This document shows, piece by piece, positions 35,331 through 42,560 of a DNA stretch of 64,000 nt; position 1 is the stretch's first letter; the number at the start of each line of letters is the position of its first letter. The notes below the pieces were generated by a model. That model saw nothing but the letters and a program-made list of their open reading frames with translations, ran no database searches and was not told the DNA's origin. A program made the translations under genes and the position numbers. Source of the stretch: Nitrosopumilus sp. (lineage in GTDB: Archaea > Thermoproteota > Nitrososphaeria > Nitrososphaerales > Nitrosopumilaceae); the NCBI GenBank assembly GCA_965197525.1, contig OZ240211.1:256001-320000 (forward strand), read 5' to 3'.

Positions 35331-38300
35331 TCAACTGGTGCTGACAGTGTATGTTTCATCCACACCTGTGGGGACGGCGTCAGTCAGCGGGTTGCCTGCT
35401 GCGTCTGTGATGCCATGGTCTGGAACTAGATCAATGTCGTAGGTGCCGTCCCGGGATACAGAGACTGTGGCTAGGTATTGGCTGCCGGACCCGGTTACTG
35501 ATGTGATGGGACCAGAGTTGGCGCCGTCACCGAGTGTAAGAGTCCAAGAGTTGAGGATCCCAGAGTCCAGATGATAGTTGTCATTCATGCGCAGCTGCCA
35601 GTCGCCGTTAATTGAGACGTCATCGCTGTATCCAAGTGTGTATGTTTCTACAATGTCGTCTGCAGAGCCGCCTGCGCGGTTGTGCAGTGTCATTACTTGG
35701 CCGTCAGGCGAGACGAGTTGCACCAGGAGATCGCCTCTCCACGGATGGGTAATGTCTACTGCAACGGATACTGCAGAGACTGTGCCTGATTCAGAGACTG
35801 TGATGGTGTCTGTCTTGTCTGTGTTGTGGGGCACTATGGCAAGGGATGGCGTACTGGTATACGTAAACGGATTTGAGCCTATTCTGCCCGTGCTGTTTGA
35901 AGACAGGGCAAAGTCGGATGCATCCACGCCGGTCACGTCCTCGCTGAATGTCACGCTGTATATCAGTGTCTGGTTGCCCGTGGTTGCGTTTGACGGGTTG
36001 AACCGCTCAATTGATGAGATTGTTGGGGCTGTGCGATCAACTGTATATGTGTGGTCTGCGCCAGTTGGGACGTGATCTATCAACGGATTGCCTGCGGTAT
36101 CTGTTATGCCGTGCCCGGACGAGGTCAAGTTGAGATTGTATGTACCCTCCTGTACGGCAGAGACTGTTATGTTGTATGTGCTGTTGGAACCTGACAGGTT
36201 GGCTATGGTACCGGTTGTGGTGGAGGAGTTGACTGTAAGCGTCCAGCTGTTCAGGGTGCCGTCGTCTGCTGAGGCATAGTTGTCGTTTATCCGCAAAGTC
36301 CAGGTACCTGCAATTGATACCCCTGTAAAGTCTGGTGTGTATGTCTGGTCTATGTCATTGGCGGAGCCGCCTGAGCGGTTGTGGACTGTCTTGGTTGTAC
36401 CATCAGGTGCAATAAGATCAATCTTGAGATCACCTTTGTACGTGTGGGAGACATCGACTGCAAGCGAGACTGACGTAACAGTGCCAGAGTCTGTAACTGT
36501 AATGGTGTCTGATATGGTGTTGTCGTCTTCAGTTATGTCAATGTCAGGAGAATTCGTCTGTGTGAACTGGTCGAAACTGGTGATGGTACTGCCTGTGGTG
36601 ATGGTACCGCTTGGGGTAATGGTATACATGACAAAGTCAGTAACATCCACACCGGTCACGTCCTCGCTGAACGTCACGTTGTATATCAGCGTCTGGCTGT
36701 TGGTGCTTTCCACAGCAGGATCATGTCTTGCAATCGATGATACAGTTGGTGCGGTGGTGTCAGTGACGTTGGTCTGCCCCACTATCACTTCGACGAAATC
36801 ATAGTAATCGTAATCCGGATATGTGTTGTTTACCTCTACGTAGAGGTGGTAGACAAACGCGTCATCCATGGACAGTCCGTCATCCGTTATGGTATGCGTG
36901 TCGTTGCCTAGGAACCAAATGGAAGGCCCAAATGCTGAATCAATATTGTCTGTCTGGTCAACCACATACCTCGTCGCATCTCCTGAATAATTCCAACCTA
37001 CGGTCGTAGAGTTGTGAGTCGTAGCAGCCCACATGTCAAGTATGCCTGCCTGGCGAACCGTGGCATTTACCAAGTTTGATGGCAGTGACAGGCCGTCTGC
37101 AGTGACAGCCTTTACTTGGTACGAGTATGACGCGCCCGGCTACACGGAACGGTCTATGTACGCTGTATCGGTGCTTTGCGTGTCGTTGACTAGCACGGAT
37201 AGGCCAAAACCAGAGTCGCGCAACACCTGGTAGCCTATAGGAGATCCTAGTGCGGGTTGGTACCACATCAACACCACCTCGGAGTCTGTGACCTTGGCGC
37301 CTAGTTCTGCTGGCTGGAACAGCGCAGCGTTTGTGACGACAATATCGACAACAAAGCTTGCAGTGGCGATATTACCGGAATCATCGGTGGCAGTACAGGT
37401 AACTGTGGTCCTACCTTCCCCAAACGTCGAGCCTGATGGTGGGGAGCACGACATGTCAACATCTGAGTCTGCTAGGTCAGTCACTGACAGGGCATCAAAT
37501 GTCACCACAGTCGAGTTCCCCTGCATCAACGTTTTGTCTATATTTGCAGGGGCGGGATCAAATACCGGTGGCGTGGTATCCTGCACCGTTACTATCTGGG
37601 TGGCAGTAGCCATGATACCAGAGGAGTCAGTGGCAGTCCAGATCACAGTCGTGTTGCCAACATGAAATGATGCCGTGGCGTTGTTGGTTATGGTTATGTT
37701 AGTGTCAGTGTCATGTGTGGCAATAGCGTTTCCTATGTCAACTGTGGTAAGGGAACTGGTAGCCTCGACTGTTACATCAACAGGTGCCGTTATTCTAAGT
37801 GATGACTGAACCACGGTTATGATCTGGGTACGAACCTGAACCGTGTTTGACGGTTCTGACAGTCTTCCTCCTGTACTGACTGATTTGATCTGATAAGAGT
37901 ATGCTGTGTCTGGTTCCACAGCAGAATCCACATATGTTGTCGCAGTACTGCCGGTATCAGTTACGAGTATCCCAAGAGAGCTAGATGTTCCACGCAGTAT
38001 CTGGTAGCCGGTTACTGGATCTGTTGGGGCATGCCAATTAAGAGTTATTGAGTTTGACGTGGATGTTGTCCTGACATTTGTTGGTGCTGTTGGTCCAGAT
38101 ATTATATTTATGTGAACTGTTGCAGGTTCGCTGCTGAGATGACCATCAAATGCACGAAACGTAAAAGAATCCATTCCCACAGCATTATTGTTTGGGGTAT
38201 ACCTATGCTCACTAGAGTTGATGGAAAATCGATCCAGCGTGCCGTTTTTTGGATCGGTCACTATTGAAAATGACAGGATATCATTTTCAGGATCAGAGCC

Positions 38301-40560
38301 AGTCAATGTTATGTCCACCGTTTCACCTGATTGAACAGTCACGGTTTGTGGAGTTGCAGTAGGTTTGAGGGTGACAAAATCCATGCTGTGCATTTTCATA
38401 ATGTTAAATGTTGATGCATACTCCTCGTTCCACAATTTATCAAAGTTTTTGAATGTTCTTGGTTTATCTTCGAGTATCATCATGATCTTATCGCTACCTT
38501 CTGCCATCATATCATGATTGACGTTATCAATGAAATCATGATCAGGGTGTGAAGAATTATCTGTAATGTCCCATAAAGCTGCTGCTACTCTTCCTTCCAC
38601 TGTTTGCCCCACTAGATTTCCATTAAGTATAGTTATAGCAGGGTTATTTATATTCCCAGATAAATCCTCATCATCATCTACAAGTGCAGCTCTCTCTAAA
38701 TCGATATGAGTATCATTATACCATTTGTATACACTAGCATTATCAACTAGACTAGGGACAAAATCCGCCCATCCTTCTGTCCATGCACAACCCTCATTGC
38801 CAGTAGAACCTCCAAAGGTGTGACCACTACAATTGGCGGTTGGAGGAAAGTTTGAACCGTATATACTATTCATAATGTGATGACCGTACTCGTGTAGTAT
38901 TGTAAATCTTCGTTGAGAATCGTCAGAAGTCCCTGGTAGAAGTGGTAAACCGTCAATATATATTGTGTCTAAACTCCGATCGTAAAAACTATCTGTATCG
39001 TCATCGTCCATAGTAAACACTTCAGGATCAGCGCCGCTCTGCCAGTTTACTGGAACTTTGGATATTACAATATTATATTCAGATGAGAAGTGATCATGAG
39101 CGTCTGAAATACTATCTGATATCCAAAGAGCGTTTTGTATATCGCCGTCTTCTGAATCAATCTGGGCGTTTATGAAAAATGCATTAAGATGGCTATTATA
39201 AACTCGATGGAATGATGTACGATACTCACGTTCATCAATATTTTGCACCTTTACATGATCGCCTTCACTGTAAACAGTTGCACGAATACGAAAAACATCC
39301 CCCTCTAAAAGATTAACATAGTTACTCTGAATATAAAAAAACACCATTAGACGAAGTATTACCACATCCTATACCGCTGGCTGTACCAGTACTATTATTA
39401 TATATTCCAATACATACCTTGGCAGAATTAACATAAGTCGTATCTCCTTCACCGAAAGGAATTTGATCGTTACGTACCCAAGTGCTTACTAAAAAAGATG
39501 TGGAATGACTGCGAGATGATGAAGATTGCGTTGATGCCCGTTTTGAAAATTCTTCATCTATCTCAGCATCCGTATGTCCTCCATCACGAAGGATCTGTCG
39601 GAAATCAGTCATATTCAGATTCAGGTGTGCACTCATCTGTTGGACAAAGTCTAGGGACTCCCCAACTCTTTGCTTAGGGTCAATGCCTTCAAAGTATGCT
39701 GCAAAGAATTCGGTGAGTAGATCTAGTGACGGTGGGACGTACCAGGAAGCGTCACCCCAGTCCTCATCATCAACCCAAGATTCAGAATCACTTTGTGTGC
39801 CCTTGGCAGATTTTTGCCCTAATGATGGGTAAAGTTCGGGATATCTAGCCATGCGTTCTGACCACAGCATTGTCTCTTCATCGTCAAGGTATATTCCAAG
39901 GTATCCTCCAGTCCGGTAGTAGGATATACCAGTTATGTGGTAATGTCCTTCATTGACAGCCCTAACTTCAATAGTATACGTCTTTGACTCGTCTGTATCA
40001 AGAGGTGTGAATTCTGTATAGTAGTAACGAAGTATTTCGTTGCCTGTTCTGTCTAACTCAATTTCATACTCAAGTCCACCAGAGTCAACTATCTCAAATC
40101 CAGAAGGTATTGTCCATCCGGTTATAAGATGTATACTGGATCTATTCTCTGTTGTATTGGTAACTGGTAGGCCATTATTAGTGATGTTTATAGTCACTGT
40201 TGCAGTCTCGTTAATATTTGGCAGTCGTGATATGCTTACTTCTGGTATTGTATGGCTTGATGTCCTAGGTGCTGTTTGATCAATCGATCCTACAGGACGT
40301 TCATAGGGTGCGGTCTCATATGACAGTATAAATCCTCTCTGTTTCAAGGGATCGACTGACGATGTAAAGACACATGCCGGTAAACCGCTTGGAGACTGCA
40401 TCAATACCCTATCATCACGGCATTGTATCTCTTCAATCGACACTCCTGATTCAAATTGTGCGTGTGGCGACTGTATGTCATTGGTATCTGCAAGTGCGGA
40501 AGTCATACTTACACTGAGTGTCAGAATTACCAGTATGGTGATTTTTAGTGTAGATGTCAT
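35331..40560 (-). pseudogene. ~1742-aa secreted/surface metalloprotease-adhesin gene broken by one frameshift and one amber codon
   Basis: Track ORFs 39322-40560, 37140-39365 and 35331-37073 join into one frame if the A7 run at 39335-39341 is A6 and TAG 37140-37142 is sense (DRSV*PGASYSYQVK vs intact DSAVEPDTAYSYQIK). Domains: signal peptide, HEYGH + EGWADF zinc-protease motifs, Ig-like, FN3 x2, HYR-like, two proprotein-convertase P-domains. Confidence 0.85.
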
Positions 40561-40601
40561 GTTAGATTAACAAAAACATATGATATAAGACTAGGGATAC
40601 T

Positions 40602-40627
40602 TGGTTCTGTGAAGTTATCGGGAGTTA
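40602..40627 (+). repeat. left terminal inverted repeat
   Basis: tGGTTCTGTGAAGTTATCGGGAGTTA, exact reverse complement of 41865-41890. Confidence 0.97.
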
Positions 40628-41889
40628 TATGTCAATCCCTAAAATGTATAAACCTCTGAACCGTAAGATATTCGTTGAAAGCGATAAAGTCAATATCACA
40701 GAAATATGCGCAAAACTCTGATCTAATGGATATGATGGCTATATTCACAAAGATGGTCAATCATTGCATCAAGATAGGGTTGAAAGAAGACACTCACAAT
40801 ATGAAGAGGTTGTCCATGTTATGTTATCATGAATTACGTAACTATGACATTTTATCAACATACAAGATATGTGCAATATCAAGAGCTGCAGGCATATTAT
40901 CAAACAGAAAACAATCAAACAAACGAGGTGTCAGAATAAGAGACCCAATAGTCAAAAATCCCTTTATGACAAACTGTTACGGCATAAAACACAACGGTGC
41001 ACTACTAACAATCCCATACAAGAAACATAACCCAATCAACATTTTACTCAACGATCACACCCAAAAAATCCTATCTGATCCTGCCTTGACGGTGCGCTCG
41101 TTTTCATTGACTGCTCTGAACATCAGTCTTTGTGTTTCAAAAACAGTGCAAGAGATAGAGTGCACCAAGAAAGTGGGAATAGACAGAAACCTAAGAAATG
41201 TGACGTGTGGGAACGAGGAAGAGGTGACAGTCTACAAGACAAACAAACTGTTATCCATAAAGGAGAACACAATACACGCCAGGGCAGGCTTCCACAGAAA
41301 TGATCGCAGGAAGAAAAATCAGTTCTACAAGGAAAAACAGAGAAGACTGACTAACAGAGCAAAGCAGTACATCCACAGAATCTCAAAGGATATAGTAGAC
41401 AACGCAGTCAAAAACAAGACTGCAATCGTCATGGAAAACCTGAAAGGAATAAGAAAATTGTACCGAAAAGGAAACAGTCAAGGTAACAAGTACAGACGTA
41501 GATTGAACGGGTGGCAATTCTACGAGTTACAACGCCAAGTAGAATACAAAGCCCAATGGGTCGGACTACCTCCAGTCGAGACAGTAGACCCAAGAAACAC
41601 GAGCACGCAGTGTCCGCAATGCGGAAAGAGACTCCAAGAGGACATGCAACAACATCGTAAATTGTCGTGTAATAATTGCGGTTTGTTTATGGACAGGGAC
41701 ATCATCGCTGCCATGAACATATCACGCAAGCTGCCCCCTAGGTTTAGGGGTAGTAGAGGTGACATAGATGAAGCACAGTCCGGCACTTTTGAGCAGGCGA
41801 TGACGGAACCCAGCACACCATTGGTAATCCGAATAGTCGATATGTCAAAGTCAAGTTTAGGGGTTAACTCCCGATAACTTCACAGAACC
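40603..41889 (+). mobile_element. non-autonomous TIR-bounded element carrying only tnpB (1287 bp)
   Basis: Perfect inverted repeats at both ends enclose a single ORF; no transposase inside; no target-site duplication visible. Confidence 0.85.
40675..41877 (+). CDS. tnpB: RNA-guided endonuclease TnpB family protein
   Basis: RuvC-I VGIDRN, RuvC-II IVMENLKG, Zn finger CPQC..CNNC, RuvC-III DRDIIAAMNI; all three catalytic acidic residues present; TATA-like TGTATAAA ~25 nt before the TTG. Confidence 0.95.
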   Translation: MKAIKSISQKYAQNSDLMDMMAIFTKMVNHCIKIGLKEDTHNMKRLSMLCYHELRNYDILSTYKICAISRAAGILSNRKQSNKRGVRIRDPIVKNPFMTNCYGIKHNGALLTIPYKKHNPINILLNDHTQKILSDPALTVRSFSLTALNISLCVSKTVQEIECTKKVGIDRNLRNVTCGNEEEVTVYKTNKLLSIKENTIHARAGFHRNDRRKKNQFYKEKQRRLTNRAKQYIHRISKDIVDNAVKNKTAIVMENLKGIRKLYRKGNSQGNKYRRRLNGWQFYELQRQVEYKAQWVGLPPVETVDPRNTSTQCPQCGKRLQEDMQQHRKLSCNNCGLFMDRDIIAAMNISRKLPPRFRGSRGDIDEAQSGTFEQAMTEPSTPLVIRIVDMSKSSLGVNSR

Positions 41890-41890
41890 A
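41865..41890 (-). repeat. right terminal inverted repeat
   Basis: TAACTCCCGATAACTTCACAGAACCa; overlaps the tnpB stop codon. Confidence 0.97.
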
Positions 41891-42131
41891 TCAACAAGTT
41901 ACAGCTAGTTTGTTGATTGGACATTCCCGATAAACTCGAATCGTCAAATAAAATAACATTTGACGTACTAGCAGTTTAACGGAATATTGGCATTTTTGCA
42001 TACTGTGTTATACATGGCAAATCCTAGAATTATTGTCGCAAAAGTAACTAACGGAACTAAAAGGAATAGGTTGGTTTTGTTTACCACAAGCATCATGGTA
42101 ACATTTGGCTATAAAAATTATCGTCGTCTAG

Positions 42132-42560
42132 CTAGTCTACCATCACAGTAAATGTGCCTTGGGTATGCGAATCGCGTAGCAATTGTACCATCTCCCGAGG
42201 AATCAGATCAGATGCTTTGTCACAACACACAGCCAACGTTCTCGGACACGTAAAATCGCTTTTTCTGATAACGATATCTGTATCGTGAGTCAGTAACAAA
42301 TTTGGGTGACCTGTTCCATTAATGGTAAATTTGTAGTCTTGTACACAAATAGTAATAGTTACTCTAGTATTGGGATCTCGTAGTCGATCTTTGAGTTCTT
42401 GAGGCAACTCATTGCAGCTAGCAGCTGCGTTGACTCCTATAATACAATCTCCACTAGGTGTTAGAGATGACTCTTTTGTAATCTCGATAGTGCGACGATG
42501 GTTTGATCGGATATTTGCATGTCCAAAAAACGAGATCTCAAACTCCATGACAGTGATCAC
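42132..42560 (-). CDS. DUF371 family protein
   Basis: GH.NI.S.H..TIEITKE..LTP.GDCIIGV and D.VIRKSDF.C.RTL motifs. Confidence 0.88.
   Translation of the reverse strand: MITVMEFEISFFGHANIRSNHRRTIEITKESSLTPSGDCIIGVNAAASCNELPQELKDRLRDPNTRVTITICVQDYKFTINGTGHPNLLLTHDTDIVIRKSDFTCPRTLAVCCDKASDLIPREMVQLLRDSHTQGTFTVMVD

Follow-up and report, generated by a model that had tools for sequence, protein, structure and literature searches.

In the thaumarchaeon Nitrosopumilus, we describe a family of transposons that carry a TnpB nuclease gene and a predicted omegaRNA between perfect terminal inverted repeats (TIRs). Their insertions bear, on one side only, a short T-purine motif immediately outside a variable 8-bp target duplication. 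We tentatively put forward the reading that the variable duplication, a product of a DDE transposase, doubles as the seed of the TnpB guide in this thaumarchaeal family, that the TAM, (W)TR, lies just outside it, and that TnpB decides which insertions persist or where they are made.

The element from which we started lies in a 64,000-nt stretch of DNA (the window) of a sponge-associated Nitrosopumilus genome that is a single contig of 2.21 Mb and 99% complete. A 26-nt inverted repeat with 100% complementarity (40602–40627 and 41865–41890) encloses it, as the original prediction had reported from the letters alone; the number of equal matches expected by chance was 0 (100 shuffles of the window). 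Alignments of sister copies begin at the GG, placing the element ends at 40603 and 41889 (1287 bp). Because the sister copies align from this GG onward, the true TIR is 25 bp long and the 26th T/A pair belongs to the flank. The perfect 25-bp TIRs begin GGTTCTGT, and the parts of the window copy are as follows.

40592–40602, + strand: left flank of the window copy, with TAG where sister copies carry W-T-R, followed by the unrepeated ggatactt
40603–40627, + strand: left TIR, 25 bp, beginning GGTTCTGT (repeat search, sister alignment)
40647–40652, + strand: TATAAA, which may be an archaeal TATA box judging by its sequence; it precedes the TTG start by about 28 nt
40675–41877, + strand: tnpB, 400 aa, TTG start (open reading frame, profiles, residues, dN/dS)
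41676–41889, + strand: predicted omegaRNA scaffold, comprising the core at 41730–41847, a variable spacer and the right TIR as its 3′ end
41865–41889, − strand: right TIR, 25 bp, including the tnpB stop codon (repeat search)
41890–41905, + strand: putative guide flank of a read-through omegaRNA, placed by geometry; this 16-mer is unique in the genome

The only long open reading frame of the element, and the sole gene between its TIRs, is tnpB. Its 400-aa product scores 73.8 bits against PF07282, the TnpB/Cas12f TNB domain (cut-off 26.3), and 121.7 bits against the NCBIfam guided_TnpB profile NF040570 (cut-off 100). The RuvC triad D170/E254/D342 and the CxxC...CxxC zinc finger (C313, C316, C332 and C335) are intact and conserved at 95% or more among 29 relatives from other genomes, bearing out the full-length nuclease that had been predicted. 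The best solved relatives are Cas12f and TnpB chains, with whose motifs E254 and D342 align. Between subfamilies, dN/dS is 0.08 at a dS of about 1.24 (residues 1–290); TnpB is subject to strong purifying selection and is therefore not an idle passenger. A frameshifted N terminus, suggested by an out-of-frame ATG at 40629, was rejected because all subfamilies keep a TTG (or ATG) start in the main frame. The stop codon, TAA at 41875–41877, falls within the right TIR, the overlap that had been noted at the outset. Judged by sequence and RNA structure, the element is a TnpB/omegaRNA module with putative DNA-cleaving activity. The lack of TnpA also held: there is no transposase gene within 40603–41889, and neither a Y1 transposase (PF01797) nor a serine recombinase (PF00239, Resolvase) was found in the 99%-complete genome by searches that were positive in 6 and 12 control genomes, respectively.

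The window element belongs to a large family. Its own genome contains 16 copies at 93–100% identity and about 20 more at 76–86%, and all of these copies terminate at GG...CC ends; the element is multi-copy and non-autonomous, with exact ends. The search for further copies of the TIR that the original prediction had proposed was also productive, with GGTTCTGT occurring 115 and 103 times on the two strands (about 29 expected) and delimiting at least 40 TIR-paired units in this genome. The full-length tnpB units, about 33 in number, form 10 subfamilies whose TIR interiors differ, and 31 of the 33 have an intact open reading frame of about 400 aa. Roughly ten short derivatives (208–655 bp) arose by independent deletions with breakpoints at tnpB residues 268–308, and every one of them keeps the last 270–340 nt of tnpB. 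Most units in the genome (28 copies) lie between perfect 8-bp duplications whose sequence varies from unit to unit. The original statement that there is no target duplication was thus right for the window copy, which has ggatactt on the left and atcaacaa on the right, and wrong for most of its sisters.

By conservation and covariation, the last 200 nt or so of the tnpB element encode a conserved, structured RNA, the ends of which are predicted. An alignment of the 3′ ends of the 10 subfamilies and 8 short derivatives yielded a consensus fold for the core (41730–41847) with 33 pairs, 98% paired, and with compensatory changes at 8 pairs compared with 0–2 in slid controls. Over tnpB residues 291–395, dS drops about threefold, from 1.24 to 0.39, and third codon positions are more highly conserved over the last 300 nt or so of the gene. 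A profile search of the genome found 51 copies of the conserved 3′ RNA block; an Rfam search with the core matched no family. The spacer between the core and the right TIR ranges in length from roughly 20 to 100 nt. Distant tnpB relatives in many cases lack a detectable left TIR and yet retain ...AGAACC 20–50 nt downstream of tnpB. Because these relatives retain it, this right end seems to be part of the RNA and not of the transposon alone. The 16-nt putative guides downstream of it are each unique in the genome. Sponge metatranscriptome contigs span the element, and one continues beyond 41889 into a different flank. We do not count them as support, because they are contigs only, DNA carry-over is possible and their depth cannot rank the parts.

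The flanks of the insertions carry a one-sided motif. When units were oriented by tnpB or the RNA core before scoring, W-T-R was found directly 5′ of the left duplication in 26/26 own-genome units with a duplication (background 8.8%), and its complement was present at the mirror position on the right in 3/26. Two further units match the motif, giving 28 own-genome insertions. When the same subfamily in the Nitrosopumilus metagenome-assembled genome (MAG) OZ245003.1 was taken with a related unit from another MAG of that genus, the count was 7/7, and distant TnpBs (41–51% identity; other genera and families) had T-R at 9/9 insertions and W-T-R at 7/9. Pooled over 44 independent insertions (28 from the own genome and 16 from other genomes, at least seven genomes), T at −10 and R at −9 are both present in 44/44 and W at −11 in 42/44 (binomial P = 4e-42). 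As controls we used nine units that encode a transposase between the same 8-mer ends and are flanked by perfect duplications. The motif was present at 1 of their 18 sides (Fisher P = 4e-12), with the qualifications that a single orthologous insertion may account for two of the nine and that close relatives of the likely partner transposase are found in only two, at genome 746475 and 1956395.

On this geometry an unoccupied site reads, in order, (W)TR, a single copy of the duplication and the right flank. The motif fits a TAM because it is adjacent, on the 5′ side, to the sequence that an omegaRNA read out through the right end would take as its guide, and on balance we lean towards the one-sided T-purine motif being the TAM of TnpB. 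Cas12f nucleases use TTTR or NTTR PAMs. The original prediction had suggested that, for want of a fixed target tetranucleotide, the TAM and guide logic of this TnpB might differ from that of known ones. A fixed motif, (W)TR, does exist; the logic may nevertheless differ, in that the motif stands outside a variable 8-bp duplication that would supply the first 8 nt of the guide.

A candidate source of transposase is present elsewhere in the genome. Eight matches to DDE_Tnp_IS240 were found, four of them within GGTTCTGT-ended units, and these transposase-bearing units have the same ends and 8-bp duplications as the tnpB units. One example, at genome 746475–748444, is 1970 bp long, with 29-bp TIRs and the duplication ctattgtg; its transposase is encoded at genome 746963–748096. 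Longer transposase-bearing units hold passengers, one of which is a DNA methyltransferase. In the candidate partner transposase (378 aa), an IS6-like DDE domain is accompanied by a SWIM finger, a second zinc-binding domain and an HTH; the protein matches PF13610 at 42–61 bits (cut-off 27). The best NCBIfam family for the candidates is IS6 (whole profile), at 102.8 and 120.6 bits against a cut-off of 125, and on these profile scores the candidate is IS6-like rather than canonical IS6. The original picture of a non-autonomous, IS6-type DDE transposon with a cognate IS6 transposase elsewhere is therefore supported, with a correction: TIRs, duplications and copy number agree with it, and DDE_Tnp_IS240 proteins do occur in elements with the same ends, but the partner is a 378-aa protein below the NCBIfam cut-off for IS6.

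The match between the two kinds of element varies among subfamilies. The TIR of the 746475 unit has its first 18 nt in common with one tnpB subfamily. The exact TIR of the window subfamily is absent from transposase-bearing units in the own genome, the best match being 16/25 positions, compared with 20/25 for a tnpB subfamily other than that of the window. Among 301 genomes sampled from the order, 123 encode a member of the transposase family; around its closest homologues in other Nitrosopumilus genomes, no TIRs were found. None of 29 tnpB loci of relatives contained a transposase, none of 30 transposase loci contained tnpB, and the tnpB and transposase elements of the own genome have one gene each; among the tnpB and transposase loci examined, no autonomous element with both was found. 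Because TnpB and transposase were never found in one element, the best reading of these comparisons is that the tnpB elements are mobilised in trans by the SWIM-DDE transposase.

The window copy lacks not only a duplication but also the landing motif, having TAG at 40592–40594. It probably lost both by a later rearrangement at its left side. Same-genus genomes share the gene order of the right flank (a small conserved ORF, a 142-aa gene and the proteasome alpha subunit) but not that of the left, with its two large secreted-protein genes, which argues that the left side was replaced after insertion. No reciprocal partner for the missing duplication was found among the 16 TSD-less copies in the genome. 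In OZ245003.1, two inverted copies carry tagaaact/ttatgtta and ttatgtta/tagaaact, both with W-T-R on the left. Such exchanged halves are the signature of inversion by recombination between copies, and this case therefore shows a route to TSD-less copies. The occurrence of TSD-less copies and of inversion between copies is compatible with, and not specific to, copy-in cointegrate transposition.

The comparison with empty sites proposed in the original prediction could be made for two OZ245003.1 insertions, the orthologous sites of which are uninterrupted in the own genome. For the window copy it gave none. In contigs from public runs, nothing links 40602 to 41890, and the single joint, from 40624 to 41868, runs from TIR to TIR. 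Same-genus genomes yielded no nucleotide-level empty site, identity there being about 65–68% with a non-syntenic left flank; the OZ245003.1 region orthologous to the window site holds a solo TIR-like remnant only. There are no paralogous empty sites within the own genome.

In our view the element is probably a DDE-type, non-autonomous transposon that has IS6-like ends of 25 bp, makes 8-bp duplications and retains its sole cargo, a TnpB/omegaRNA module, by homing. A transposase encoded elsewhere, for example by the 1970-bp element, would bind the common GGTTCTGT ends and insert the element with an 8-bp stagger. The omegaRNA would be transcribed through the right end, so that its guide would consist of the 8-bp duplication and the next 8–12 nt or so of flank. 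TnpB–omegaRNA would then recognise and cut the element's own unoccupied site, in which (W)TR precedes a single copy of the duplication followed by the right flank, and repair from an occupied copy would restore or spread the element. Such unoccupied forms might be generated when the element is lost precisely between its duplications; alternatively, a sister or incoming chromosome might supply them. The occupied site would be immune, as GAACC rather than TR precedes the guide-matching flank. Insertions away from a correctly oriented (W)TR would be unprotected and hence lost, and this loss would account for the motif being on one side only. IS6-type transposition is replicative, which makes the source of empty sites for homing an assumption of the model. 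Further points against it are the inexact TIR match between the window subfamily and any transposase-bearing unit, the widely varying spacer, the distant relatives in which the left TIR is undetectable, and the window copy itself, with its missing duplication and motif.

Two other explanations grant the element its transposon nature and differ over the motif. One, which we think unlikely, is that (W)TR is a target preference of the DDE transposase or its end complex and that TnpB is a passenger with no role in site choice or retention. Weak target preferences are frequent among DDE transposases, and the scarcity of close relatives of the likely partner among the controls leaves this account some room. 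It fits poorly with a motif that is strictly one-sided though in many copies the left and right TIRs share all 25 bp, that is almost absent beside transposase elements with the same 8-mer ends, that falls exactly at the TAM position relative to the right-end guide and that is kept across TnpBs 41–51% identical with different TIR interiors; the purifying selection on TnpB also speaks against a passenger. Less probable again is a part for TnpB or its RNA in insertion, perhaps with the right end tethered at a TAM while the transposase integrates 8 bp downstream. The invariance of the motif (44/44) is stricter than one might expect of a selective filter, and Cas12k-guided Tn7-like transposons, an established case of a Cas12 relative directing a DDE transposase, provide a precedent. 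At the time of transposition, however, the guide would match the old site, so only the 2–3-nt motif would be readable, and neither 60 tnpB loci nor 30 transposase loci revealed a co-localised transposase or adaptor gene.

The remaining explanations concern the identity of the element itself. We give very little credence to an ordinary IS200/IS605 (IS1341-type) or IS607 element, moved by a Y1 or serine TnpA, in which the inverted repeats are incidental. These families do hold most prokaryotic tnpB genes (PMC10691335), but dozens of copies here have 25-bp TIRs and 8-bp duplications, the 99%-complete genome has no Y1_Tnp or Resolvase domain where control genomes were positive, and homologous tnpB genes in this and other genomes have TIR ends of the same kind and not IS605 hairpin ends; for this genome the explanation is refuted unless a TnpA escaped the searches. 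Least credible of all is that the two repeats are the ends of two unrelated neighbouring insertions. The missing duplication of the window copy would suit such an origin; the whole unit, at 1287–1291 bp and with both ends and clean duplications, nevertheless recurs at least 20 times over two genomes, which refutes this explanation. The original prediction had named the confinement of the TIR to this locus, IS605 ends on homologous genes and a chance pairing of insertions as findings that would count against it, and the data point the other way on each.

The linkage of TnpB to DDE transposases is already published, and the window element is a further form of a known arrangement. Branches DDE-1 to DDE-6 of TnpB are linked to DDE transposases, IS630 being named (Altae-Tran et al. 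2023 PNAS, PMC10691335), and a 2026 review adds ISL2 and IS1031 (IS5 family) and treats the rarity of prokaryotic DDE–OMEGA pairs as an open problem (PMC13565253). Recent mobility is evident in some of the DDE-linked branches (PMC10691335; PMC13565253). Like the window element, the DDE-1 to DDE-6 branches have TnpB within symmetrical DDE-type inverted ends and not IS605/IS607 ends. Their transposase, however, is in the same locus, whereas tnpB and transposase were never found together in the window family, which, going by the published descriptions, also stands apart by its IS6-like SWIM partner, its variable 8-bp duplication and the TAM-like motif outside it. IS6-like partners, a trans-only arrangement and a TAM outside a variable duplication are not named in PMC10691335 or PMC13565253, and no paper on the window element family was found in the literature full text.

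The ends and duplications ally the family with IS6. The IS6 end consensus is GGTTCTGTTGCAAA, with GG at positions 1–2 and G at position 7 (PMC6807381), and the family makes 8-bp target duplications, with one member with a passenger gene and two MITEs on record (PMC7986276). The window ends begin GGTTCTG, matching GGTTCTGTTGCAAA, the consensus of the family to which IS26, IS257 and IS1216 belong; some window subfamilies read GGTTCTGTTGCAT. All tnpB subfamilies begin GGTTCTGT, some continuing TGCAT, and so have ends of the IS6 kind. Short perfect inverted repeats, 8-bp duplications and a partner transposase with a DDE_Tnp_IS240 catalytic domain extend the likeness. Canonical IS6/IS26 elements, by contrast, are about 800 bp long and encode a transposase of about 230–250 aa with H-HTH and DDE domains (PMC6807381, PMC7986276), whereas the autonomous form of the window family spans at least 1970 bp, its 378-aa transposase has additional SWIM and zinc domains, and the tnpB form lacks a transposase gene of any kind, IS6-type DDE or other. 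No thaumarchaeal IS6 members are described in PMC6807381 or PMC7986276. On comparison of ends, duplication and protein, the element is IS6-like by its ends and duplication and is not a member of IS6/IS26.

The IS200/IS605 family (ISDra2, IS608 and the solo-tnpB IS1341 group) resembles the window family in the order of its parts, with a left recognition motif, tnpB, a 3′-overlapping omegaRNA and a guide in the right flank, and in the role proposed here, cutting the empty site to restore the element (PMC13565253). In structure, however, it has subterminal hairpins and no TIRs, makes no duplication, uses a Y1 transposase and has its TAM abutting the left end, whereas in the window family the 8-bp duplication stands between the motif and the left end and would supply the opening 8 nt of the target. 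The element has none of the structural hallmarks of IS200/IS605 or IS607. The eukaryotic TnpB relatives known as Fanzor offer another parallel, being RNA-guided TnpB-type nucleases in transposons with TIRs and target duplications (PMC3627910; PMC13565253). In Fanzor elements the duplication is fixed (TA or TTAA) and forms part of the TAM (PMC13565253); in the window family, a variable duplication would form part of the guide, with the TAM beyond it.

The accepted role of TnpB is to restore IS605 and IS607 elements after scarless excision, a role that is not obviously transferable to DDE transposons, which duplicate their targets and may not excise. For this question the family described here is a natural data set: its independent insertions number in the dozens, some derivatives lack a transposase or keep the omegaRNA only, and transposase-bearing units serve as controls. 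As every surviving insertion carries a likely recognition motif, and carries it on a single side, the way in which landing site, duplication and guide are linked is directly testable. A 400-aa archaeal TnpB with a short predicted TAM is also a candidate compact tool. If the proposed link is true, transposase-less elements and omegaRNA-only miniatures would be kept alive in trans, and the family would represent a prokaryotic coupling of OMEGA homing to a duplication-making, probably replicative, transposon.

The element with tnpB as its sole gene (window 40603-41889) has the following neighbours:

37140-40560, minus strand: two large repeat-rich proteins of 741 and 412 aa, left of the element
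41987-42151, plus strand: small ORF of 54 aa, just right of the element (noted region 41967-42151)

The 741-aa and 412-aa proteins are probably secreted. We found no counterparts of them at the corresponding locus in the same-genus genomes sampled, and the element therefore sits at a synteny break. The 54-aa ORF is conserved at 50-68% amino-acid identity in same-genus genomes and may be a genuine short gene; it shares 20 nt with the 3′ end of the 142-aa gene that converges on it. Within the element, ATATGTCAA is present twice, just inside the left TIR (40627-40635) and in the conserved RNA core (41839-41847); because other tnpB subfamilies lack the left copy, this repetition is probably due to chance.

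Elsewhere in the same genome (genome coordinates), we identified these units:

699962-703151 (L023): GGTTCTGT element with transposase and passenger genes
583727-588872: GGTTCTGT element with transposase and passenger genes
1394563-1396016: 1454-bp unit, duplication gaaaaata, with TTG on the left
545578-547221, 874684-876327, 879510-881153 and 1029177-1030821: units of a second tnpB family
562158-562546: 389-bp short derivative of the second tnpB family

The 1454-bp unit contains an omegaRNA core, a single TIR that matches the window's at 22 of 25 positions, and a 264-nt piece resembling the 5′ part of the element that bears the transposase. It appears to be a relic, either nested or chimeric. 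Reviews of the IS6 family record a passenger gene for just one member (PMC6807381, PMC7986276). Among the passengers of the two GGTTCTGT transposase elements listed above is a 371-aa DNA methyltransferase-like ORF with a DPPF motif. In different genomes, transposase-bearing elements of ~2.5-2.7 kb adjoin the same conserved gene in L123 and L126, and likewise in L119 and L127. The duplications of L123 and L126 are near-identical (tgttctag and tgttttag), so the insertion common to these two loci is probably inherited. The closest homologues of the 378-aa SWIM-DDE transposase, at 63-68% identity, are found in other Nitrosopumilus genomes (L101-L107); no inverted repeats are detectable around them, and these copies may therefore be immobilised or domesticated.

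Two inverted element copies lie in the Nitrosopumilus MAG OZ245003.1:

1323880-1328064: L167
1449933-1454117: L170

The halves of their duplications are swapped, which indicates a ~126-kb inversion via recombination between the copies.

The second tnpB family is unrelated to the window's element and comprises ~1644-bp units outside the window, with open frames of 526-582 aa, inverted ends beginning GGGAATTAC and duplications of 7-8 bp. W-T-R, the motif directly 5′ of the left duplication in the sister tnpB insertions, is absent from the bases 5′ of the duplications of these own-genome units.

In distant relatives of the window's tnpB (41-47% identity; L075, L076, L079, L082-L084, L086, L090, L093 and L095), the right end ...(A/T)(C/G)AGAACC is kept 20-50 nt after the gene, and none of these loci has a left end to match it. 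Throughout the clade, the conserved 3′ end of the omegaRNA may thus coincide with the IS6-like right terminus.
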